The notes under the pieces were generated by a model, which made no database searches, was not told the DNA's origin, and was given only the letters and a program-made list of their open reading frames with translations. The position numbers were made by a program, and so were the translations under genes. A DNA stretch of 64,000 nt, taken from contig CAZPLO010000003.1 of NCBI GenBank assembly GCA_964587725.1, positions 1,135-65,134 of the forward strand, given 5' to 3'. Source of the stretch: an uncultured archaeon. GTDB lineage: Archaea > Altiarchaeota > Altiarchaeia > IMC4 > SCGC-AAA252-I15. Positions 1,612 through 11,573 of this stretch are shown in pieces (the stretch's first letter is position 1; each line of letters begins with the position of its first letter).

Positions 1612-2058
1612 CTAGTGTTCCAGGGTCTCCCGGTCCCCGGCTATTCGTTTATGGGCGGCCTCCAGCTCGTCTGAAACCGGTTTCCCGTGTTTCTTGCGGT
1701 AGTCGTAGACGGCCTCCTTGAGGGCGTCCGCCGCCAGCAGCGAGCAGTGTATCTTCATCGGCGGCAGCCCGCCGAGGGACTCCACCACCTCGTCTTTCCC
1801 GATGTCCAACGCCTCATCCAGTGTCTTCCCCTTAGCCAGTTCGGTGACCTTGCTGCTGGTGGCTATGGCTGCCGCACAGCCGAGGGTCTTGAACTTGATG
1901 TCTTCCACGCGGTCGTCTTTGACCTTTAAATATATCCACATGAGATCTCCGCACCGCATGTTCCCCGCTTCTCCGACCCCGTCCGCATCCTCTATTTCAC
2001 CCACGTTCTTGGGGTTTGTGAAATGCTCTATAACCTCTTCAGAATACATGTCATTCAC
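1612..2058 (-). CDS. iscU: Fe-S cluster assembly scaffold IscU/NifU-like
   Basis: Three conserved Cys (NMRCGD, KTLGCAAA, PPMKIHCSLLA). Overlaps the iscS stop by 4 nt. Confidence 0.8.
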   Translation of the reverse strand: MNDMYSEEVIEHFTNPKNVGEIEDADGVGEAGNMRCGDLMWIYLKVKDDRVEDIKFKTLGCAAAIATSSKVTELAKGKTLDEALDIGKDEVVESLGGLPPMKIHCSLLAADALKEAVYDYRKKHGKPVSDELEAAHKRIAGDRETLEH

Positions 2059-3194
2059 CTCTTCACCGGACTTATGGCCCTGAGTTTGCTGATTTCCTCC
2101 TCCAGCTTCTCGACCGTGTAATCCACTTCCTCGGCCTTATTGTATCTGCTTAATGTCATCCTTACGCTGCCGTGCGCCTCCTCAGGCTCCAGGCCCATGG
2201 CCGTCAACACGTGGCTGGGTTCGAGCGTATGCGACGAGCATGCGCTGCCGGTGGAACACGCTATCCCATGGCCGTCGAGACGGAGTATTACTGCCTCTCC
2301 TTCGACTCCGTGGAATGTTATGTTGGCGTTGTTGCAGAGCCTCCTGCTGGGGTGCCCGTTCAGCCGGGTGTCCTCCACGTTCTCCTGAACGTCTTTTATG
2401 AGCCGGTCCCTGAGTCCAGCTAATTTTTCCACGTCCTCCTCGGCTTCGGCCGCCTTGGCGAACCCCACTATGCCTGCCACATTCTCCGTCCCGGCCCGTT
2501 TGCTTCCTTCGTGGCTTCCGCCGTGCAGTAGGGGCGTGACATTCACCCCCTCCCGTATGTAGAGTGCGCCCACGCCCTTGGGGCCGTGTATTTTGTGAGA
2601 GTTCACCGTGACCAGGTCCAGGTGCTGTTTCTCCACGTCCAAGTCTGTTTTGGTGAAGGACTGGCAGGCGTCGGTGTGAAAAAGCACATCGTTTTCAGAC
2701 GTTATCTTGCCTATGCCGGCGATGTCCTGTATGGTGCCGACCTCGTTGTTGGCGTGGCCCACGGAAACCAGTATCGTGTCGTCCCTAACTGCGTCTCCTA
2801 CGTCGCCGGGGTCCACCAGTCCATACTCGTCCACCCCCACGTACGTGACTTCATAGCCTTGTTTCTCCAGCCATTTGCAGGTGTTGAGTATGGAGCTGTG
2901 TTCCACGGCGGTTGTGATTATGTGTCCGCCTTTGTCTCGCAGCGCGTATGCCACACCCTTCAACGCTAGGTTGTTGGATTCCGTGCCCCCTGATGTGAGG
3001 ATTATGTTCCGGGGTTCAGCCTTCACCCGTCCCGCTACCGTTTTTCTGGCGTCTTCCACAGCCTTCCTAGCCTCCCTGCCCCGCTTGTGCAGGGATGATG
3101 GGTTGCCGTAGCTCACGCTGTAATACGGCTCCATAGCTTCAAGAACCTCTGCAGACGCCCGTGTGGTGGCTGCGTTGTCCAAATACACATCCAT
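2055..3194 (-). CDS. iscS: Cysteine desulfurase (IscS/NifS class I aminotransferase V)
   Basis: 379 aa. LTSGGTESNN, the PLP-lysine region SHKIHGPKG, and active-site CSTGSACSS. Confidence 0.85.
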   Translation of the reverse strand: MDVYLDNAATTRASAEVLEAMEPYYSVSYGNPSSLHKRGREARKAVEDARKTVAGRVKAEPRNIILTSGGTESNNLALKGVAYALRDKGGHIITTAVEHSSILNTCKWLEKQGYEVTYVGVDEYGLVDPGDVGDAVRDDTILVSVGHANNEVGTIQDIAGIGKITSENDVLFHTDACQSFTKTDLDVEKQHLDLVTVNSHKIHGPKGVGALYIREGVNVTPLLHGGSHEGSKRAGTENVAGIVGFAKAAEAEEDVEKLAGLRDRLIKDVQENVEDTRLNGHPSRRLCNNANITFHGVEGEAVILRLDGHGIACSTGSACSSHTLEPSHVLTAMGLEPEEAHGSVRMTLSRYNKAEEVDYTVEKLEEEISKLRAISPVKR

Positions 3195-3199
3195 GGTTA

Positions 3200-3215
3200 G
3201 TTAACAATTGTTAAC
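3200..3215. promoter_or_regulatory. Perfect 16-bp palindrome GTTAACAATTGTTAAC 6 nt upstream of the iscS ATG (candidate operator)
   Basis: Seen directly. Sits between a TTTAATAC TATA-like element and the start codon. The same motif recurs at 6990, 8514, 11158 and 7028. Confidence 0.5.
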
Positions 3216-3249
3216 ACAGATGTATTAAAGTATGTACGTAACCAACCAG

Positions 3250-3717
3250 TTACTTAAGAACCACCATGTTGGTGAGCCCCCGCCGTCTGCGCTCCAGGAA
3301 ACGCATGGACTCCAGCTTGTCCAACGTCCTCGTCACCTTCACCTTAGACAACCCGGTCTTCTCCCCTATCTCGCTCTGGAACAACGCCCCACCAGCGTCC
3401 GTTATGAGTTTGTACACCGTCTCCTCGTCGCCGTCCAAGGCCGCCAGCTTCTCAGACCACTGCTCCGACGACTCAGCCCTGAACGGCACGGGCTTGAATG
3501 CAAGATACACTCCAGTCAGCAGGATGAATCCCGCGCCTCCGAGTCCCACGTAGAACATCGGCGGCACCTTGAAATGAACCATGTCGCACGACTCCCCGCA
3601 ATCGCAGGACGCGGAGCTTACGTCACTCAGCATGTTCAGGAACCACACCATGGTGAAGCCCATCACCAACGCCACAGCCACCATCAAATAACCTACCCCC
3701 TGCAATCCAACGTTCAT
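3250..3717 (-). CDS. Membrane-anchored winged-helix (MarR-like) transcription regulator with Cys cluster CDCGESCD
   Basis: Two N-terminal TM segments with the Cys cluster between them. C-terminal ETVYKLITDAGGALFQSEIGEKTGLSKVKVTRTLDKLESMRFLERRRRG winged-HTH. Overlaps the cysS stop by 4 nt. Confidence 0.45.
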   Translation of the reverse strand: MNVGLQGVGYLMVAVALVMGFTMVWFLNMLSDVSSASCDCGESCDMVHFKVPPMFYVGLGGAGFILLTGVYLAFKPVPFRAESSEQWSEKLAALDGDEETVYKLITDAGGALFQSEIGEKTGLSKVKVTRTLDKLESMRFLERRRRGLTNMVVLK

Positions 3718-5087
3718 CGTATCCTCTCTGCGACCGTGCGGCCGCCCACGTCCTTCAAACGGATGCCTTTCTCCAGCAGTTCGTCGCGTATCCTGTCCGC
3801 TTCAACGTATTTTTTCTCAGCCCGCAGCCGCTTGCGCTCCTGAATCAATTTCTTCAACCCGTCACTTAACTCTTCCCCTGTGAAATCGAACCCCAATACG
3901 CAGGCGACTTCATCGAACACCTGCAGGGCATGCTCCACCGACTCGTCGGACTGCTCGGAGAGCATCCCGTTGACGTCCCGCACGGCCTCGAACAACGCCG
4001 CAACCGCCTTGGGCGTGTTGAAGTCGTCGTCCATCGCCTCGGTGAACGTTTCCTTGAACGAGTACATCTGTTCAGCCGCAGTATTGCTCCCTCCGCCTCC
4101 CGCGGACGACAGCGCAGCCCGGAAGTTCCGCAGCCGCTCCACGGCCTTACCAGCCTCCTCCACGAGGCCGCCGTTATAGTCTATCTGGCTCCTATAGTGC
4201 GTCTGCAATACGAACATACGCAGCGCCTCCGCACTGTACTGTTCCAGGAACTCCCGCACCGGCAGTATGTTGCCGAGGCTCTTGCTCATCTTCTCCCCGG
4301 ACGAATACAGGAATCCGGTGTGGAGCCAGTATTTCACGGCCGGCTTCTCCCCAGTCAAAGCCTCGCTCTGCGCTATCTCGTTCTCGTGATGCGGGAAAAT
4401 CAGGTCGAGGGCGCCGCCGTGTATGTCGAACCGGTCTCCCAAGTATTTGCGTGACATAACAGAGCATTCGATGTGCCAGCCGGGGCGGCCGCGGCCCCAT
4501 GGGCTGTCGAAGCCCAGTTCGCTGTCGCCGGACTTCTTCCACAACGCGAAGTCGAGGGGGCTGCGTTTCCGGCCGTCCTGCTCAACCCTGTGTTCAGTGA
4601 GCTCGTCCGTCTTCTGGTTGGAGAGTTTCCCGTAGTCCGGGAACGTCGACACCTCAAAGTACACGTCCCCGCCGGATTCATACGCATGGCCTTTCTCTAT
4701 CAGAGTCTTAACTGCGTCTATCATCTCTTCGATGTTTTCGCTCACCCGCGGGTATGCGTCCGCCTCCAGCAGGTTGAGCCGCCGCTGGTCCTCCAGCGCT
4801 GCTTCCGCGTACTCCGCCGACAGCTTCAGCGGCTCCACACCCTTTTCGGAAGCGCGCTTGATGATTTTGTCGTCGACGTCGGTGACATTCTGTATGTATC
4901 TGACGTCGTAGCCCCTGTAGCGGAGGTACCTGAAGATGGCGTCGAACGCCAGATACGTGCGGGCGTGGCCGATGTGCATCCTGTCATACACCGTCAGCCC
5001 GCACACGTACGCGCGGACCACACCCTCCTCAACCGGCTTGAACTCCTCCGTCTCCCTTGAAAGGGTGTTGTACACGCGCAACGTCAT
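3714..5087 (-). CDS. cysS: Cysteinyl-tRNA synthetase
   Basis: HIGH motif (HIGHARTY), KMSKS (KMSKSLGN), Zn-binding Cys. The track ORF extends to 5132; the internal ATG at 5087 (MTLRVYNTL) is the likelier start. Confidence 0.9.
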   Translation of the reverse strand: MTLRVYNTLSRETEEFKPVEEGVVRAYVCGLTVYDRMHIGHARTYLAFDAIFRYLRYRGYDVRYIQNVTDVDDKIIKRASEKGVEPLKLSAEYAEAALEDQRRLNLLEADAYPRVSENIEEMIDAVKTLIEKGHAYESGGDVYFEVSTFPDYGKLSNQKTDELTEHRVEQDGRKRSPLDFALWKKSGDSELGFDSPWGRGRPGWHIECSVMSRKYLGDRFDIHGGALDLIFPHHENEIAQSEALTGEKPAVKYWLHTGFLYSSGEKMSKSLGNILPVREFLEQYSAEALRMFVLQTHYRSQIDYNGGLVEEAGKAVERLRNFRAALSSAGGGGSNTAAEQMYSFKETFTEAMDDDFNTPKAVAALFEAVRDVNGMLSEQSDESVEHALQVFDEVACVLGFDFTGEELSDGLKKLIQERKRLRAEKKYVEADRIRDELLEKGIRLKDVGGRTVAERIR

Positions 5088-5095
5088 ATTGAATG

Positions 5096-5117
5096 TTAGC
5101 GAGGGGAGGGATTCGAA
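5096..5117. repeat. 22-nt exact copy of the tRNA-Cys 3' end (acceptor 3' strand plus T-arm) in the cysS upstream region
   Basis: TTAGCGAGGGGAGGGATTCGAA occurs at 5096-5117 and 5210-5231. Between the copies is a hairpin, GAATCCGC-TAC-GCGGATTC at 5171-5190. Confidence 0.7.
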
Positions 5118-5211
5118 ATAAGGGCAGGGCACCTACGGTTCCCCGCCCTTATCAACCCTACCCCTCCCTTGAATCCGCTACGCGGATTCGTGCCTCATCT
5201 TCTGGTTGTTT

Positions 5212-5327
5212 AGCGAGGGGAGGGATTCGAACCCTCGGATAATGGCTTGCCGCATGCTTCAGGGCGTTGGAGCCCGTCCGCTTTTTTTTTTGCAGGCCAC
5301 CCCATTAGGCCGCTCTGGCACCCTCGC
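5212..5327 (-). tRNA. tRNA-Cys (anticodon GCA) with an intron of about 42 nt in the anticodon loop (canonical 37/38); CCA not encoded
   Basis: Minus-strand sense: GCGAGGG-UG-CCAG-AGCGGCCUA-AUGG-G-GUGGC-CUGCAA[A8 GCGGACGGGCUCCAACGCCCUGAAGCAUGCGGCA]A-GCCAU-UAUCC-GAGGG-UUCGAAU-CCCUC-CCCUCGC-U. The 7-bp acceptor pairs perfectly. T-loop is UUCGAAU. Anticodon stem GUGGC/GCCAU. U73 discriminator, typical of tRNA-Cys. Folded by hand only. Confidence 0.55.
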
Positions 5328-5346
5328 AAAAAAATACAAGTAGTTT

Positions 5347-5937
5347 CTATATCACCCATTCGGGTTCCTTGGTGCAGGCGTCGCACGGGTCTTTCAGGCG
5401 CATGTAGCAGCCTTCCATCACCCGGAGCCTGCCCTTCGGGCACACCACGGTGGAGTCCTCGGGTATGTCGTCAACGATGACCGACAACGCGCCGATGCGG
5501 CTGTTTTTCTTCACCGTCACCGGCCCCAGTATCGTTGCCCCCACGCCCACTATCACGTTGTCTTCGAGGGTGGGGTGGCGCTTCTCCCCTTTTTGGTCGC
5601 GCCACCACCCGTGTCCCCCAAGGGTTACGCCGTGGTAGAGCATGACGTTGTCCCCCAGCTTCGCCGTCTCGCCGATGACCACGCCGGTGGCGTGGTCGAT
5701 GAAGAAGTTCCTCCCTATTTCGGCGGCTGGGTGTATTTCCGCGCCGGTGAGGAACCTCCCCAGATACGACAGTGCCCTGGGGATTATCGGAACTCCAAGC
5801 TTATATAATGCGTGGCCCACCCTGTAGACGAGTATCGCCTGCACCCCCGGGTAGAACACCGCCTCCAGGTGGCCGACTCCGCCCTTCAGCGCGGGGTCCT
5901 TCTCATAGGCTGTCTTGAACACGTCGAACATCATCAC
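5347..5937 (-). CDS. cysE: Serine O-acetyltransferase
   Basis: Left-handed beta-helix hexapeptide repeats ([28 protein letters not shown]). Overlaps the cysK stop by 4 nt. Confidence 0.8.
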
Positions 5938-6848
5938 CCCTCATACAACGGCGTCGACAGGTAGCGTTCGCCGGTGTCCGGCAGAATAACCACCACCCGC
6001 TTGCCCTTGCCCAGCCGTTTCGCAACCTGCAATGCAGCCCAGGTGTTCGCGCCGGCTGAAATACCCGCCAACAGCCCCTCCTCCCGCGCAAGCCGTTCGG
6101 AGGTTCTGAAGGCGTCGTCGTTGGACACCAGTATGGTCTCGTCTATGAGCGAGACGTCCAGGATGTCCGGTATGAAGCCCGCGCCGATGCCCTGTATCAT
6201 GTGGGGTCCCGGCTGTCCGCCCGAGATTACGGGCGAGCCCTCCGGCTCCACGGCGATGAACCTCGCATCCGGCAATTCCTCTTTCAGCGCGGATGCGACC
6301 CCCGTTATGGTGCCGCCTGTGCCTACTCCTGCGACGAACGCGTCAAAGGTTTCCACCTCGCGCAGCAGTTCCCGGGCGGTCGTTTCCCGGTGGGCTTTCA
6401 CGTTCGCCTTGTTTTTGAACTGCTGCGGTATGTAGACGTGCGGGTCCTCCGCATCCAGTTCCGCCGCCTTGTCTATCGCACCCTTCATGCCCTTCGCCCC
6501 GTCGGTGAGCACGAGTTCGGCGCCGTAGGCCTTCAGTATCTTCCTCCGCTCCAGGCTCATGCTGTCCGGCATCGTCAGCTTCAGCCGGTAGCCTTTCACG
6601 GCCGCGACCATCGCCAACCCTATGCCGGTGTTCCCTGAAGTAGGTTCGACGATGACGCTGCCTTCGTTCAGCAGCCCCTGCCGCTCCGCCTCCTCTATCA
6701 TGTAGAGTGCTATGCGGTCCTTGACGGAGGAGCCTGGGTTGAAGTACTCCACCTTGGCTATGACCTCCGCGTCTCCTGTTCCTGGCAGCCGGTTAAGTTT
6801 CACGTGCGGCGTGCCCCCGATTCTCCCGATTATGTTGCCGTATATCAT
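5934..6848 (-). CDS. cysK: Cysteine synthase / O-acetylserine sulfhydrylase (PLP-dependent)
   Basis: [14 protein letters not shown] (PLP lysine) and the PTSGNTG loop. 304 aa. Confidence 0.85.
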
Positions 6849-6989
6849 GATTGATCACCTCATTGTTTTTGATTTGGTTTCTGTGGTCCGTGTGTAGGAT
6901 TAGTCTGTTGGGGTCGTCAGACCCTACATTGCATGCAGTTCTTTTCCTTCCGCCTGCCCAGGAGGGCGTCGACGTCAACAACCATCTTT

Positions 6990-7005
6990 CTTAACAATTG
7001 TTAAG
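6990..7005. promoter_or_regulatory. 16-bp palindrome CTTAACAATTGTTAAG, plus a variant TTAACGATTGTTA at 7028-7042, in the divergent region between cysK and the HTH gene
   Basis: Seen directly. Same core as the sites at 3200, 8514 and 11158. Confidence 0.5.
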
Positions 7006-7075
7006 GATATGTAATACTAGTATAAAAACTTAACGATTGTTACTATTTTTAAAGGTTAACGCCGTTAATGTTATC

Positions 7076-7366
7076 ATGAAGCTCCCATGCGAAGAGGCGT
7101 TGTGGTATATGCTGCCGCGTATACGCGCGGACATTGCCAAAGAGCTGGTTAAAATGGGTTTGAGCCAGAAGGAGGCCGCCAAGAAGCTGGGCGTCACCCC
7201 ATCTGCCGTGTCACAGTACCTTCACAAAAAGCGCGGCGGAAAGGCGAAGATGCCGAAGGACTACGGCAAAATGGTTGAGGCGACGGCGGAGAAGCTCCTG
7301 GAGGCGGACGACGAAGCGGTCGTACTCGCGCTGCTGTGCAGGTGCTGCAGCGCAGCCCGGCGTTAG
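7076..7366 (+). CDS. Small HTH DNA-binding protein (sigma-70 region 4/DUF134-like helix-turn-helix, C-terminal CxCC); candidate regulator of the adjacent palindromic sites
   Basis: LSQKEAAKKLGVTPSAVSQYLHKKRG HTH signature. The track ORF starts at 7037; ATG at 7076 (MKLPCEE) is likely. Confidence 0.45.
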   Translation: MKLPCEEALWYMLPRIRADIAKELVKMGLSQKEAAKKLGVTPSAVSQYLHKKRGGKAKMPKDYGKMVEATAEKLLEADDEAVVLALLCRCCSAARR

Positions 7367-7674
7367 GAACGCACCATAACCAGCATCATCTTAAAACGCT
7401 TCACAGCGTTCAGCGCGTGCGGCTTGTCGGCGGGCATGATTATGTATTCTCCGTCGCACACGCGGTGCGGCTCACCGGCTATGATTACCTCTGCTTCGCC
7501 GTCGAACACGTGCACGAGGGCGTCGAACGGCGCGGTGTGCTCGCTCAAACCCTGTCCCTGGTCGAAGGCGAACAGCGTCACCGTGCCCGTGTCTTTTTTC
7601 ACAACCTCCCTGCTGACTATGGAGCCCTCCTGGTAGTCCACCGCAGCCTTCAGTTCATTCACGTCCGTTTTCAC
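7363..7674 (-). CDS. Cupin-domain protein (about 103 aa)
   Basis: C-terminal VTLFAFDQGQGLSEHTAPFDALVHVFDGEAEVIIAGEPHRV..GEYIIMPADKPHA is a cupin beta-barrel signature. The track ORF (7363..7905) has 78 N-terminal codons overlapping the upstream gene. A GTG at 7672-7674 overlaps that gene's stop (GTGA). Confidence 0.45.
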   Translation of the reverse strand: MKTDVNELKAAVDYQEGSIVSREVVKKDTGTVTLFAFDQGQGLSEHTAPFDALVHVFDGEAEVIIAGEPHRVCDGEYIIMPADKPHALNAVKRFKMMLVMVRS

Positions 7675-8504
7675 CCCGTGTTGACCCACTCCTCCTTCAG
7701 TATGCCGCCCTGTATGCCGACCACCACGGATTTCACAGGAATCCTCCTGCCGGCGTCGGATGCCGCGGCCTTGGCTATCTGCAGCAGGCCGCCGCAGCAC
7801 GGCACCTCCATGGTCATAACCGTAAGCGTGTTTATGCCCGCGTCGTCTATCATCGCCTTCAACTTCTCCACGTAAGCCTCCTTGTTGGTGTCGAGTTTCG
7901 GACACGCTATCGCCACCGCCTTCCCCTTAAGATGGTTTGAATGGAAGCTGCTGAGGGCGTATGCTACGCAGTCGGCGGACAATACGACGTCCGCCCCACG
8001 GTAATACGGGGCGGTGGGGGGCACCAGGTGCAGCTGCACGGGCCACTGCCGCAGCTGCGAAATCACGTCCCCTGCTTCACCGCCTTCCCGGGCGAACTCC
8101 ATCATTTTGGTGCCCGGGCACCCGCCGCCGCATGAGCCTCCGCTCTCCCATTTCACCGGCATGTCCAAGCCCTTCTCCCGCAGCACCTCCACGGCCTGTT
8201 TGAAGAAGTCGAATTCCCCGTGTTCCTTCAGGTGGCTCAGGTGCGCCTTGATTGTGTTCGGCCCCGCTCTTATTATGTTCTCCATCACCTTCTTCTCGTC
8301 GTAGGGTTCTGCCTCCCGCTCCTCAATCTCTATCGCGCCCTCCGGGCAGTGTCCTATGCAGGCGCCGAGGCCGTCGCAGAACAGGTCGCTCACCAGCCGC
8401 GCCTTACCGTCTATAATCTGCAATGCGCCTTCGGGGCAGTTGGGGACGCAGAGTCCGCAGCCCGTGCACCTGTCCTCGTCTATGCGTATTATCTCCCTTT
8501 TCAT
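7671..8504 (-). CDS. 4Fe-4S dicluster ferredoxin-domain protein with an additional Cys-rich C-terminal domain
   Basis: CTGCGLCVPNCP and CDGLGACIGHCP (2x CxxCxxCxxxCP), then CGGGCPG and VPCCGG. ATG at 8504 (MKREII) is likely. The palindrome lies 10 nt upstream. Confidence 0.55.
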   Translation of the reverse strand: MKREIIRIDEDRCTGCGLCVPNCPEGALQIIDGKARLVSDLFCDGLGACIGHCPEGAIEIEEREAEPYDEKKVMENIIRAGPNTIKAHLSHLKEHGEFDFFKQAVEVLREKGLDMPVKWESGGSCGGGCPGTKMMEFAREGGEAGDVISQLRQWPVQLHLVPPTAPYYRGADVVLSADCVAYALSSFHSNHLKGKAVAIACPKLDTNKEAYVEKLKAMIDDAGINTLTVMTMEVPCCGGLLQIAKAAASDAGRRIPVKSVVVGIQGGILKEEWVNTG

Positions 8505-8513
8505 CCCCAACAC

Positions 8514-8527
8514 TTAACAATTGTTAA
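8514..8527. promoter_or_regulatory. 14-bp palindrome TTAACAATTGTTAA immediately upstream of the 4Fe-4S protein gene
   Basis: Seen directly. Confidence 0.5.
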
Positions 8528-8578
8528 CTATTATGGTATTGGGTTATAAATACTCCCCCCATCATCGAGGATAGCCTG

Positions 8579-9703
8579 TTACCTTCCCCCGTTGTCTTCC
8601 AGGAACTCCACCAGCGTGTTGCCTAAGGTGTTGTTGTAGACGAGGAAGGCGTCGTGGCCGTACGGCAGGTCCAGCTTCCTATAAACAACGGGAACGCCGG
8701 CTTCGGCGAGGCCTGCGTACACTTCCTCCACCTGCTCCGGCGGATACAGCCGGTCGGAGGTGAAGGACACCAGCAGGAACTTCGCCTTCACGTCTTTGAA
8801 CACGTCCCTCAGCTTCCGCTCGCCTTCGGTGAGGTCGAACTGGTCTATGGCGTGTGTTATGTACAGGTAGCTGTTGGCGTCGAACCGCCGCACGAAACTC
8901 CTGCCCTGGTAGTTGAGGTAGCTCTGCACCTCGAACTCGACCCCGAACTTCCCGTTCTTCCGCTTCTTCCGCTCCCGCCCGAACTTCCGCTCCAATGTCT
9001 CCTGGCTCAGATAGGTTATGTGCGCAACCTTCCGCGCCAAAGCCAGTCCGTTGCCAGGCTGCCTGCCGTATCTTCCGTTGTTCCAGTCCGGGTCGTTCAG
9101 TATGGCCTGGCGGCCGATTTCATGGAACGCTATGCCTAGCGGATACTGTTTGGCGGCTGCGGCCACTGACATGGCGAGGTTCACAGAGTCAGGATAGCGC
9201 ACGGCCCATTCGAGAACCTGCATGCCGCCGAGGCTGCCTCCGACCACGCAGTGCAGTTTATTTATGCCAAAGCGGTCTATCAGCTTCTTCTGAGCGCGGA
9301 CCATGTCCCCCACGGTGATGAGCGGGAAGTCGAGGCCGTACGGTTCCCCCGTCTCAGGGTTTATGGATGAGGGTCCGGTGGATCCCCTGCATCCTCCGAC
9401 GATGTTGGAGCATATGACGAAGTATTTCCGGGTGTCGAATGTCTTGCCGGGGCCGACGGCGATGTCGTACCACCCGTTTTTCCTGCTGTTCCTCCGCCGC
9501 TTCCCTGCTGCGTGGGCGTCTCCGCTCAGCGCGTGGCAGACGAGCACCGCGTTGCTTTTGTCCTTGTTCAGCCGGCCGTAGGTTTCATACGCTATCCTCA
9601 GCGGGGAAATCGTTTCCCCTGAGTCGAGCCGGAGCTCGTCGAACTCCTCATACTTCGTCTTCACGACCCCCACTGAATCCTGCATTTTAACCAATTCAAT
9701 CAC
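8579..9703 (-). CDS. metX: Homoserine O-acetyltransferase (alpha/beta hydrolase)
   Basis: GGSLGGMQVLEWA nucleophile elbow and MetX-like length. An internal ATG at 9685 (MQDSVGV) is possible. Confidence 0.75.
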   Translation of the reverse strand: MIELVKMQDSVGVVKTKYEEFDELRLDSGETISPLRIAYETYGRLNKDKSNAVLVCHALSGDAHAAGKRRRNSRKNGWYDIAVGPGKTFDTRKYFVICSNIVGGCRGSTGPSSINPETGEPYGLDFPLITVGDMVRAQKKLIDRFGINKLHCVVGGSLGGMQVLEWAVRYPDSVNLAMSVAAAAKQYPLGIAFHEIGRQAILNDPDWNNGRYGRQPGNGLALARKVAHITYLSQETLERKFGRERKKRKNGKFGVEFEVQSYLNYQGRSFVRRFDANSYLYITHAIDQFDLTEGERKLRDVFKDVKAKFLLVSFTSDRLYPPEQVEEVYAGLAEAGVPVVYRKLDLPYGHDAFLVYNNTLGNTLVEFLEDNGGR

Positions 9704-9868
9704 CTAAATCCCGGCGCCCCATTCCAGGTGTTCGTCATCCCTCAGCAGTGCCTTACAGTTCCAGCATCTCCCCTGGGTCAGGGCGTAATGTCGGAGTATG
9801 CATGTCCTGCAGTTGCTGCATTCGAAACCGCACGGCAGTTTGCCCGGGTGCTTGATTTCGTCTGTCAT
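9704..9868 (-). CDS. Small zinc-ribbon protein (54 aa) between metY and metX
   Basis: Manual translation: MTDEIKHPGKLPCGFECSNCRTCILRHYALTQGRCWNCKALLRDDEHLEWGAGI (CxxxC..CxxC..CxxC). Absent from the track because it is under 60 aa. Confidence 0.4.
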   Translation of the reverse strand: MTDEIKHPGKLPCGFECSNCRTCILRHYALTQGRCWNCKALLRDDEHLEWGAGI

Positions 9869-11143
9869 CTACAGCCCCTCCAAAGCCTGGTCTATGTCGT
9901 CCAATATGTCGCCGATGTTCTCCAACCCTACGGACAGCCGTATCAGCTCCGGCGTAATCCCCGATGTTTTGAGCTGTTCGTCGGTGAGCTGGCTGTGTGT
10001 GGTGCTCGCCGGGTGTATGGCAAGGCTCTTCGCGTCGCCGACGTTGGCGAGGTGGGAGAACAACTTCAGCGACTCTATGAATCGTCTGCCAGATTTTTTC
10101 CCACCCTTCACGCCGAACACCACCATCCCCCCGTACCCGTCTTTCAGGTACTTTCGGGCGTTGTCGTGTGTTGGGTGGGTGTCCAAGCCGGGGTAGCGAA
10201 CCCACTCCACTGCATCATGCGCTTCCAGGTACTCAGCCACCTCCAACGCGTTCTCCGAATGTTTCTTGATCCTCAGCGGCAGGGTCTCCAGTCCCTGGAG
10301 GAAAATCCATGAGTTGTCCGGCGATATGCAGCCGCCCAGGTTCCTCAACGGCACCAGCCTCATCCTCAGAATGTACGCGAGGTGGTTCAGCCCTCCGAGG
10401 TCGGTCGCGTATCTTATGCCGTGATAGCTGCTGTCAGGTTCCGTGAGCAGCGGATGCTTCCCCCGCGTCCAGTCGAATCTCCCCGAATCCACGACCGCGC
10501 CTCCGATGGCTGTTCCGTGTCCGCCGATCCACTTGGTGAGGGAGTGGCAGACGATGTCTGCCCCGTGTTCTATCGGCCTCAGCAGACAAGGGGTGGTGAA
10601 GGTGCTGTCGACTATGTATGGTATGCCTTGGTCGTGCGCGACCTCCGCTATCGCATTGAAGTCCGGAACACTTAATGTCGGGTTCCCTATGGTTTCACTG
10701 TACACAGCCTTCGTCTCATCCGTTATCCTTTCGGCGAGTTCGTCCGCGCGGGGTTCCGCGAAGCGGACGTTGATGCCGAAGTCCGGTAGTATGTTGTTGA
10801 ACTGCGTGTAGGTTCCGCCGTAGAGGTGGTTGGATGACGCGATCTCGTCGCCTGACTTCGCGAGGTTGACGATGCTGTAGAATATCGCGGTCGTCCCGGA
10901 TGAAACGGCCAGCGCCCCGGCTCCGCCTTCAAGGTCGGCGAGCCGTTTCTCCAATACGTCGGTGGTGGGGTTCATCAGCCGCGTGTATATGTTCCCAAGT
11001 TCCTTCAATCCGAACAGATTCGCGGCGTGTTCCGTGTTTTTGAACACGTAGCTGGTCGTCCTGTGCACTGGAACCCCTCTGGACAGCGTCGTGGGGTCCG
11101 GTTCCTGGCCCGCGTGCAGGGCCTTGGTTTCTGTCTCACTCAT
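9869..11143 (-). CDS. metY: O-acetylhomoserine sulfhydrylase (Cys/Met-metabolism PLP enzyme)
   Basis: 424 aa. SGTTAIF, the PLP-Lys region HSLTKWIGGHG and ETIGNP. Confidence 0.8.
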   Translation of the reverse strand: MSETETKALHAGQEPDPTTLSRGVPVHRTTSYVFKNTEHAANLFGLKELGNIYTRLMNPTTDVLEKRLADLEGGAGALAVSSGTTAIFYSIVNLAKSGDEIASSNHLYGGTYTQFNNILPDFGINVRFAEPRADELAERITDETKAVYSETIGNPTLSVPDFNAIAEVAHDQGIPYIVDSTFTTPCLLRPIEHGADIVCHSLTKWIGGHGTAIGGAVVDSGRFDWTRGKHPLLTEPDSSYHGIRYATDLGGLNHLAYILRMRLVPLRNLGGCISPDNSWIFLQGLETLPLRIKKHSENALEVAEYLEAHDAVEWVRYPGLDTHPTHDNARKYLKDGYGGMVVFGVKGGKKSGRRFIESLKLFSHLANVGDAKSLAIHPASTTHSQLTDEQLKTSGITPELIRLSVGLENIGDILDDIDQALEGL

Positions 11144-11157
11144 CTGAAAACACCATT

Positions 11158-11171
11158 ACTAACAATCGTTA
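11158..11171. promoter_or_regulatory. Variant palindrome TAACAATCGTTAA about 15 nt upstream of the metY ATG
   Basis: Matches 12 of 14 positions of TTAACAATTGTTAA. It is the reverse complement of the 7028 variant. Confidence 0.4.
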
Positions 11172-11225
11172 AGTCTAATATAAATACTTGTCGCATATTT
11201 TCATGCAAATATGCATAGAATATCC

Positions 11226-11573
11226 TTAAGTGAATATCCGGGCCGAGATAACGGGGAGGAGCAGGTTGATTATAGTGTAAGTCAGCACAACGTATGTTGT
11301 TATGGTCACAATCACCGTCATCCGATGCTGTTTCACATCCTCTATGCTGCAGGTGCCGCCGCACTCCTTCCTTATCTTCAGGTAAAGCGACGTGAGCATG
11401 AACAGCGCGCCGGCGGCGATGAAAAACCACTTGTACCTGGGTATCTTGAAAGCGGCCGTGACGCTGCCGAGCCCCAGGACGCTGAACAGCAGGGCAAGTA
11501 TGAGCGGCAGGGTGCAGCAGCTCGACGCTATGATGCTCGCCTTCAACCCCGTGTAAACATCCTTCAAGTCCAT
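11226..11573 (-). CDS. MerT/MerF-like heavy-metal transport membrane protein (3 TM, vicinal Cys pair in TM1)
   Basis: 115 aa. SSCCTLPLILALL in TM1 and a second Cys pair ECGGTC in the loop, as in MerT. Confidence 0.5.
   Translation of the reverse strand: MDLKDVYTGLKASIIASSCCTLPLILALLFSVLGLGSVTAAFKIPRYKWFFIAAGALFMLTSLYLKIRKECGGTCSIEDVKQHRMTVIVTITTYVVLTYTIINLLLPVISARIFT

Follow-up and report, generated by a model that had tools for sequence, protein, structure and literature searches.

We conclude that the palindrome TTAAC-AATT-GTTAA, which recurs in the promoters of sulfur and iron-sulfur (Fe-S) genes in a 64,000-nucleotide stretch of DNA from an uncultured archaeon of the phylum Altiarchaeota (contig CAZPLO010000003.1 of assembly GCA_964587725.1, positions 1,135 to 65,134; this whole stretch is hereafter called the window), is probably the operator of an autoregulated, thiol- or Fe-S-sensing repressor that is encoded within the same gene cluster, at 7076-7366. 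According to the mechanism that we propose, a dimer of this XRE-type helix-turn-helix (HTH) protein would bind the palindrome, which covers the predicted transcription start just past the TATA box, and such binding would block the recruitment of RNA polymerase. The repressed units would be iscS-iscU, the leader open reading frame (ORF) together with cysK-cysE, a ferredoxin-cupin gene pair, metY-metX and the HTH gene itself. DNA binding would probably be switched by a cofactor or by the thiol state at Cys5, Cys88 and Cys91 (plus Cys90 and Glu6) of the protein; the cofactor would most likely be an Fe-S cluster, and the genes would be released when the supply of sulfur or Fe-S clusters is short. 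Binding, repression, autoregulation and the nature of the signal are all inferred from sequence.

Palindromic sites and promoter geometry

A sequence-only reading of the window had singled out the palindrome as recurrent and suggested a search for it with up to two mismatches. When run on the window, which has a base composition of about 57% G+C, such a search bears out the recurrence: TTAACAATTGTTAA yields 5 matches in 64 kb, against 0.03 expected, a count reached by 0 of 100 shuffles, and there is no match outside the five promoter sites. Three copies are exact (3201-3214, 6991-7004 and 8514-8527); the other two, at 7030-7043 (TTAACGATTGTTAC) and 11159-11172 (CTAACAATCGTTAA), each carry two mismatches and not one as previously stated, and their coordinates, first given as 7028-7042 and 11158-11171, are corrected here. 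Allowing three mismatches adds no further site in the window. The core TAAC-N4-GTTA is found exactly five times in the window, where about 0.5 are expected, and all five core matches are the same promoter sites. The perfect 16-bp palindromes described earlier at 3200-3215 (GTTAACAATTGTTAAC) and 6990-7005 (CTTAACAATTGTTAAG) can be read directly from the sequence. A sixth, related palindrome of 13 bp with a 3-bp spacer, TTAACGCCGTTAA at 7056-7068, had been overlooked. All six sites cluster in 8 kb, and no palindrome site occurs in the remaining 52 kb.

When each promoter is read in the direction of its gene, every operator comes after an AT-rich, TATA-like box and ends 5-15 nucleotides (nt) before the start codon, so the placement between these two elements that had been claimed for the sites holds; of the distances to the start codon given previously, that for metY stands, whereas those for iscS (6 nt) and the ferredoxin gene (10 nt) are each one nucleotide too long. 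The operator of iscS, O-isc (3200..3215), is the perfect palindrome GTTAACAATTGTTAAC; it directly follows the TATA-like TTTAATAC and lies 5 nt before the iscS ATG (3194, minus strand), the promoter reading cTTTAATAcatctgtg-TTAACAATTGTTAA-ctaacc-ATG. The divergent promoter between cysK and the HTH gene has a shared TATA-like box at 7021-7028. On its cysK side, O1 (6990..7005; CTTAACAATTGTTAAG) is located 16 nt downstream of this box in the cysK sense and 5 nt before the ATG of a small ORF that precedes cysK (gTTTTTATAc-N15-TTAACAATTGTTAA-gaaag-ATG). In the HTH direction, O2 (7030..7043; TTAACGATTGTTAC) is directly downstream of the same box, there reading TATAAAAA, and O3 (7056..7068), the 13-bp palindrome TTAACGCCGTTAA, lies between TATTTTTAAAGG and the HTH ATG, 7 nt before the latter (gTATAAAAAc-TTAACGATTGTTAC-TATTTTTAAAgg-TTAACGCCGTTAA-tgttatc-ATG). 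O-fer (8514..8527), an exact copy of TTAACAATTGTTAA, is found 9 nt upstream of the ferredoxin-gene ATG at 8504 (TATTTATAAcccaataccataatag-TTAACAATTGTTAA-gtgttgggg-ATG), and O-met (11159..11172; CTAACAATCGTTAA) directly follows the TATA-like TATTTATATT and is separated by 15 nt from the metY ATG at 11143 (TATTTATATTagac-TTAACGATTGTTAG-N15-ATG). In archaea, the distance from the TATA box to the transcription start is usually about 25 nt, and because of this spacing the operators are predicted to cover the start sites of short-leader or leaderless transcripts. Archaeal repressors act downstream of the TATA box, where they block recruitment of RNA polymerase, and it is the position of the operators relative to this box that suggests repression.

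Co-inheritance of the operator and the HTH gene

The sequence-only reading had named the HTH gene at 7076-7366 as the candidate regulator, and the distribution of the palindrome supports this choice. Loci with relatives of the HTH gene (designated by L numbers below) were drawn from genome and metagenome collections and from look-ups, and a site was scored when the 14-mer at up to two mismatches, or the exact 13-mer, was present within 200 nt upstream of the HTH gene. Such a site is found in 37 of the 45 non-redundant archaeal loci, against a background of 19 of 2115 segments of 200 nt in the same loci (0.9%) and 0 of 1469 in 17 unrelated loci. The loci come from Altiarchaeales, Pace-, Woese-, Nano- and Micrarchaeota, Thermoplasmatota, Methanocella, ANME-1, Methanosarcinales, Methanonatronarchaeum and Freyarchaeota. 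The usual layout in Altiarchaeota consists of two sites on either side of one shared TATA box, the proximal one near -22 and the distal one between -60 and -100; the cultured Methanocella conradii has this layout (TTAACGGCGTTAA-TATA-ATAACAATTGTTTA-ATG), the HTH gene in a metagenome-assembled genome of the Asgard group Freyarchaeota shows the same promoter arrangement, and that of Methanonatronarchaeum thermophilum has TTAACAATCGTTAA at -86. In 465 kb of archaeal loci, 59 of the 68 sites are intergenic, even though crude ORF calls fill 91% of this DNA, and most of the nine others fall in spurious ORFs. Furthermore, the flanking intergenic sequence is not conserved, while the palindrome is kept at orthologous promoters of distant phyla.

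The symmetrised matrix of the sites reads T-T-A-A-C-R-A-T-Y-G-T-T-A-A; positions 2-5 and 7 (TAAC and A) and their mirrors are nearly invariant, and the bases that vary are those at positions 1 and 6 and at the mirrors 14 and 9. The 13-mer type, TTAAC-N3-GTTAA, precedes HTH genes in at least 12 other loci. Copies of this type were noted in L002 at 9964 and 1961, L027 at 9941, L036 at 1237, L077, L079, L080, L083, L085, L087, L139 and L144 at 5948. The 13-mers are mostly located in the promoter of the HTH gene itself, with few elsewhere, for example beside iscS in L002 and in L040 at 7915, and may represent a lower-affinity or alternative-state autoregulatory site.

The candidate regulator and its family

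The 96-residue protein encoded at 7076-7366 matches the Pfam family HTH_3 (PF01381) over residues 20-52 with an E-value of 6.3e-08 (33.0 bits, compared to a cutoff of 23), and its long-form relatives match it as well; no family-specific model was found in Pfam or NCBIfam, where the matches are to generic HTH families only. The protein has an N-terminal LPCE motif (Cys5, Glu6), a C-terminal C88-R-C90-C91 motif and the recognition helix TPSAVSQYLHKKRG; because the N-terminus MKLPCE is conserved, the ATG at 7076 can be taken as the true start. The AlphaFold model is all-helical, with five helices (4-26, 31-38, 42-50, 63-76 and 80-95), of which the second and third make up the HTH, and a mean confidence score (pLDDT) of 79. 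The Foldseek neighbors are small XRE dimers and C proteins, such as C.Esp1396I, at non-significant similarity (E ~1, TM 0.37-0.44), and searches of the PDB with this protein, by sequence and by fold, detected no informative or solved relative.

Close relatives of the protein number 66 and come from Candidatus Altiarchaeota, Chlorobiaceae and one Sulfolobales metagenome-assembled genome; a profile search extends the family to at least 1253 relatives, among them proteins of Methanocella conradii, Methanonatronarchaeum, Hydrothermarchaeales, Undinarchaeales, Freyarchaeota, Woese-, Nano- and Micrarchaeota, and some Omnitrophota. None carries an annotation more specific than 'transcriptional regulator' or 'HTH domain-containing'. 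Invariant or nearly so in the family are P4, C5, E6, T41-P-S/A-A-V-S-Q-Y48...K52-R53, C88, C90 and C91. In particular, the recognition helix, T-P/Q-S/A-A-V/I-S-Q-Y, is almost unchanging, which matches the invariance of the half-site TAAC/GTTA and thus counts in favor of the XRE protein as the factor that binds the palindrome.

The cysteines show a distinctive pattern of conservation. Among 181 family members, Cys5, Cys88 and Cys91 are all present in 127, all absent in 49 and mixed in only 5, the members of the DPANN type having Q in place of C5 and lacking C88 and C91. This co-variation implies that the three residues form one functional site, which is likely to be a metal or Fe-S sensor site; at 96 residues, the protein is too small for another ligand domain. 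The longer archaeal members have an extra, zinc-ribbon-like CxxH...CxxC tail. Some relatives (P0067-P0070), at 201-221 residues, are about twice the usual length of the family and could represent tandem or covalently dimeric forms of the regulator.

Content of the predicted regulon

The sulfur/cysteine regulon that had been surmised from the window gains support from other Altiarchaeota, in which the palindrome recurs before the orthologous cysK, metY and iscS genes; in this phylum, cysK is directly downstream of a site in 13 site-gene pairs. Among the loci compared, sites also precede metY (L063, L066 and L087), iscS (L002), iscU (L022), the gene for a SufC-like ATPase (L026), sufB (two sites in L039 and a perfect site 3 nt before the gene in L040), and the genes for NadA (L029, L030 and L070), the HcyBio homocysteine-synthesis enzyme (L029), SepCysS (L027), Thi4 (L065) and CDGSH Fe-S proteins (L002, L079 and L139); sites are also followed by genes for CopA with an ABC ATPase and for a PP-loop protein. 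As for the HTH gene, it is the first gene of suf operons (HTH-sufBDSUC in L036 and L041), the last of one (site-sufB...HTH in L040) and the first before iscS-iscU (site-HTH-iscS-iscU in L028 and L033); elsewhere it faces cysK, metY, nadA or CDGSH genes that carry a site. Judging by this gene content, the theme of the predicted regulon is the supply of reduced sulfur and Fe-S clusters, and across archaea its core would be Fe-S cluster assembly (isc/suf) as much as the synthesis of cysteine and methionine.

A separate observation concerns Methanocella, where a gene encoding a free-standing homolog of the editing domain of archaeal threonyl-tRNA synthetase (ThrRS; PF08915) with a C-terminal CxxC...CxxC tail (L025, 7699-8374; L027, 18741-19335) has a perfect operator before it and iscS(-iscU) after it.

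The cysteine-rich small ORF in the cysK leader

The promoter position originally assigned to the cysK site is correct, whereas the gene directly after this site is not cysK: the operator is separated from the cysK ATG by 142 nt, and this leader of about 140 nt contains a Cys-rich small ORF (6917-6985, minus strand; MVVDVDALLGRRKEKNCMQCRV*) that begins right after the operator, at an invariant AAAATGG. The small ORF is conserved in 10 other Altiarchaeota loci (L062, L066, L067, L068, L071, L073, L081, L083, L092 and L114), where it encodes peptides such as MDRHEYLHSGRPCGCCCCRECRL*, MNPQKVHQGRGTPTGFCCCCCQCRL* and MHRKNTKKTERSCTCSCCQCQCC*. In all eleven loci the frame is open for 16-25 codons, and Cys accounts for 41 of the 248 residues, the copy in the window being the least Cys-rich of the eleven. 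The start lies some 4-5 nt past the operator in 9 of the 11 loci, and the peptides mostly end with C-R-[LVIAP]-stop. An oligo-T tract precedes the Shine-Dalgarno sequence of cysK in 6-7 of the 11 loci, the window not being one of them.

The small ORF is a candidate for a cysteine-sensing leader peptide; to our knowledge, no such leader-peptide attenuator is known in Archaea. With respect to RNA structure, RNAalifold finds in the conserved leader block nothing more than a weak, conserved hairpin of 8 bp that encloses the stop codon, with no compensatory changes, single-sequence folds of the leaders have no structure in common that would mask the Shine-Dalgarno sequence, and Rfam, at both gathering and E-value thresholds, detects nothing in the cysK leader. 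Thus, given the weak hairpin without covariation and the lack of a common masking fold, the idea of a riboswitch or structured attenuator is unproven. The nearest known parallel is an attenuator of mycobacteria, in which polycysteine leaderless short ORFs are located at the 5' transcript end of cysteine-biosynthesis genes (Canestrari et al., bioRxiv 10.1101/834739). Like these, the archaeal ORF is short, Cys-rich and positioned at the 5' end of a cysteine-biosynthesis transcript; it differs in the archaeal host, in the conserved C-R-L/V/I-stop end and in that no structure sequestering the ribosome-binding site was found in the leaders. A further difference is the downstream oligo-T tract present in several loci, which would fit archaeal termination rather than translational masking.

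Weighing the evidence and the alternatives

Several facts weigh against the interpretation of the HTH protein as a sensing repressor that acts at the palindrome. The loci were sampled by the presence of the HTH gene, and the site matrix is partly circular because the sites were gathered with the consensus from the window. In seven loci (L034, L035, L037-L040 and L042), there is no detectable site upstream of the HTH gene, and none is present in the sufCB promoter of Methanocella conradii. The AlphaFold model is of only moderate confidence, and the Cys residues could hold structural zinc rather than a sensing cluster. Finally, although the recognition helix is shared by homologs from Chlorobi, a nearby site is present for only 11 of 75. 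The Chlorobiaceae homologs keep C5/C88/C90/C91 and are encoded immediately before the cytochrome c biogenesis genes resB/ccsA, divergently from a Haem_bd gene, as in Chlorobaculum tepidum TLS (L060, 8001-10389); in some Chlorobaculum loci, TTAAC-N3-GTTAA is present about 120 nt upstream. The Chlorobi homologs may employ another site arrangement, and may result from inter-domain transfer with a changed regulon.

The alternative that fares best, although we consider it unlikely, holds that the HTH protein does bind the operator, with the cysteines retaining structural zinc, and that the signal arrives via a partner or a metabolite (CysK or O-acetylserine), in the manner of CymR, which in Bacillus needs CysK and responds to O-acetylserine. 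Such a scenario is compatible with the nearly constant divergent arrangement of the HTH gene and cysK in Altiarchaeota, seen in the 13 site-gene pairs, with the small size of the protein, which has no ligand-binding domain, and with the likeness of the tail of the long family members to a zinc ribbon. Outside Altiarchaeota, however, the HTH gene pairs with isc or suf and not with cysK, so that a CymR-like dependence on CysK, plausible as it is within that phylum, is not general. IscR and NsrR employ sets of three Cys residues plus one further ligand for cluster sensing, and the combination of Cys5, Cys88 and Cys91 with the near-invariant Glu6 resembles such sets; moreover, the triad is lost as a unit in the DPANN-type members, as a functional module would be.

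Still less probable, in our estimate, is that a different factor binds the palindrome, be it the membrane-associated winged helix-turn-helix (wHTH) protein encoded at 3250-3717 or an unlinked one, with the XRE HTH gene being simply a member of the regulon. Certainly, a site that adjoins the gene of a transcription factor is no proof of autoregulation, and the wHTH gene, which encodes a protein with a Cys-rich loop (SCDCGESCD) and a C-terminal, DUF7343/MarR-like winged helix, sits in the cysS-isc string, so that it had been put forward as a second candidate. This candidacy has not withstood the comparison and we reject it, as the wHTH fails to accompany the motif: the archaeal loci compared contain a single homolog of the wHTH (L081, 38% identity), which there, too, lies beside cysS, and the cysS-wHTH operon itself has no site. 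In contrast, the motif goes with the XRE HTH gene across phyla (the 37 of 45 archaeal loci above), no other regulator gene recurs beside the sites, and the invariance of the XRE recognition helix parallels that of the half-sites. The wHTH protein, which is co-transcribed with cysS, may be a membrane-tethered metal or thiol sensor, apparently unrelated to the palindrome.

The remaining alternative, a core promoter feature, a restriction/modification palindrome or a small repeated intergenic element, hardly deserves credence, for although the palindrome is AT-rich, adjoins TATA boxes and contains HpaI (GTTAAC) and MfeI (CAATTG) sites, no other promoter in the remaining 52 kb of the window has it, it occurs only at functionally coherent genes, distant phyla retain it at orthologous promoters, and its place, past the TATA box, is one from which archaeal repressors work.

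The gene cluster in the window and its surroundings

Gene identities were assigned from Pfam and NCBIfam matches, which agree with those originally read from the sequence (NifS/IscS, NifU_N, CysS, CysE-like, CysK, HTH_3, Fer4, MetX and MetY). The minus strand carries iscU/nifU (1612-2058; NifU_N, an Fe-S scaffold), which forms one operon with iscS/nifS (2055-3194; cysteine desulfurase), followed by the genes for the wHTH protein with its two transmembrane segments (3250-3717), cysS (3714-5132), the gene for a CysE-like hexapeptide acetyltransferase (5347-5937), cysK (5934-6848), the genes for a small cupin (7363-7674) and a 2x[4Fe-4S] ferredoxin-domain protein (Fer4; 7671-8504), metX (8579-9703), and metY (9869-11143; O-acetylhomoserine sulfhydrylase), with a 54-residue, Cys-rich, zinc-ribbon-like ORF (9704-9868) between metY and metX. 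The candidate regulator, the 96-residue HTH_3 protein, is encoded on the plus strand (7076-7366). The Cys-rich C-terminal portion of the ferredoxin-domain protein, about 200 residues (CPKLD...PCCGG), has no Pfam or NCBIfam match. Six other Altiarchaeota loci (L001, L065, L074, L078, L083 and L087) preserve the synteny of the ferredoxin/cupin pair with metX, downstream of which it lies, and with the HTH gene; the pair is likely to be a player in sulfur or homocysteine metabolism.

Downstream of iscU, the minus strand (1-1562) encodes an HMA-domain protein and then an HMA-polytopic membrane-cupredoxin-like protein, and just upstream of the metY promoter lies a gene for a MerT-like membrane protein with a CC motif (11226-11573, minus strand); thus, the regulon is flanked by genes for metal/thiol transport. 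An intron-containing tRNA gene (5212-5327, minus strand) was found by Rfam, whereas ARAGORN found no tRNA. The 3' end of this tRNA (ttagcgaggggagggattcgaa; 5211-5231) is duplicated 114 nt downstream (5097-5117), at the base of a long hairpin (5098-5171), and this duplication is possibly the att-like trace of a past integration.

Significance

Fe-S proteins abound in archaea, notably in anaerobes and methanogens. No regulator of isc/suf (MIS/SMS) or of cysteine genes is named in a survey of archaeal Fe/S pathways from 2021 or in a review on Fe-S clusters from 2026 (PMC8351635, PMC13066941), and a body of 8 million full texts, which does not extend to subscription-only titles, yielded no description of the motif, of the HTH family or of an archaeal isc/suf/cys regulator. 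The outcome of the present analysis is a concrete candidate pair of regulator and operator: the site is defined at 14 bp, a sensor triad is predicted, and orthologs with the same promoter layout occur in the culturable Methanocella conradii and Methanonatronarchaeum thermophilum. The pair therefore opens a direct approach to how archaea control Fe-S and sulfur homeostasis. In addition, the conserved operator can be used to find sulfur and Fe-S genes of unassigned function, such as the ferredoxin/cupin pair and the ThrRS-editing-like protein of Methanocella, and, should the Cys-rich leader ORF be functional, Archaea would be among the organisms with ribosome-based sensing of amino acids.

A much broader proposition, which we offer tentatively and regard as possible rather than probable, is that this protein, with its operator, is the long-missing archaeal regulator of Fe-S biogenesis (ISC/MIS and SUF/SMS) and of the assimilation of reduced sulfur, which would sense Fe-S clusters or thiols directly and would be shared by lineages from DPANN and Altiarchaeota through methanogens and ANME-1 to Asgard archaea, with cysK of Altiarchaeota having acquired, on top of this control, a leader peptide with Cys codons that would be the first archaeal ribosome-mediated amino-acid sensor.

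Comparison with known regulators

The analogy with IscR, the bacterial [2Fe-2S] regulator of isc and suf operons, extends to several features: IscR is autoregulated and is encoded by the first gene of the iscS-iscU operon, as the HTH gene is in L028 and L033; it acts at palindromic operators in the promoters of Fe-S assembly genes, has three Cys residues plus one further ligand, and recognizes two types of operators, which brings to mind the 14-mer and the 13-mer. There is, however, no sequence relationship: the protein in the window belongs to HTH_3 (XRE) and not to Rrf2, has 96 residues compared to about 160, and differs in the operator sequence and the archaeal host, and its cluster is only predicted. 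None of the 17 Pfam and 5 NCBIfam matches at E<=0.01 is to Rrf2, and the PDB searches with the HTH protein, by sequence and by fold, retrieved no Rrf2 structure. In cyanobacteria and actinobacteria, SufR is a [4Fe-4S] repressor of sufBCDS, a winged-helix protein of about 220 residues from another family. The likeness consists in a repressor gene that adjoins or heads the suf operon and is autoregulated (compare L036, L041, L040 and L039), and in a C-terminal Cys cluster; this is functional analogy only, and no SufR-type match came up in the Pfam, NCBIfam or PDB searches. The CymR-CysK system of Bacillus and Staphylococcus, in which CymR is the master repressor of cysteine metabolism, shares with the predicted regulon the repression of cysK and of cysteine/methionine genes via a palindromic operator, as well as genetic and functional linkage with CysK, but CymR, a member of Rrf2, has no cluster and needs CysK as co-repressor, whereas the protein described here has a Cys site of its own and is linked with cysK in Altiarchaeota only.

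Among archaeal regulators, SurR of Thermococcales senses sulfur status via cysteines and acts at a palindromic motif that contains GTT and AAC. With about 230 residues, a double winged-helix fold and a CxxC redox switch, SurR controls hydrogenase and S0-reduction genes, not isc/suf/cys. Its operator is GTT-N3-AAC, extended as GTTn3AACn5GTT, whereas the half-sites described here, TTAAC/GTTAA, are arranged as AAC-N4-GTT; identity with the SurR motif was considered and rejected, the site matrix being without the GTT-N3-AAC arrangement. The C proteins of restriction-modification systems, such as C.Esp1396I, are also small, helical XRE dimers that regulate themselves via palindromes over their own promoters, but they have no Cys site and an unrelated function, and the similarity is not significant. 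By analogy, then, the regulator would work like IscR, SufR and CymR while being unrelated to them, as a member of an uncharacterized family within the XRE superfamily.

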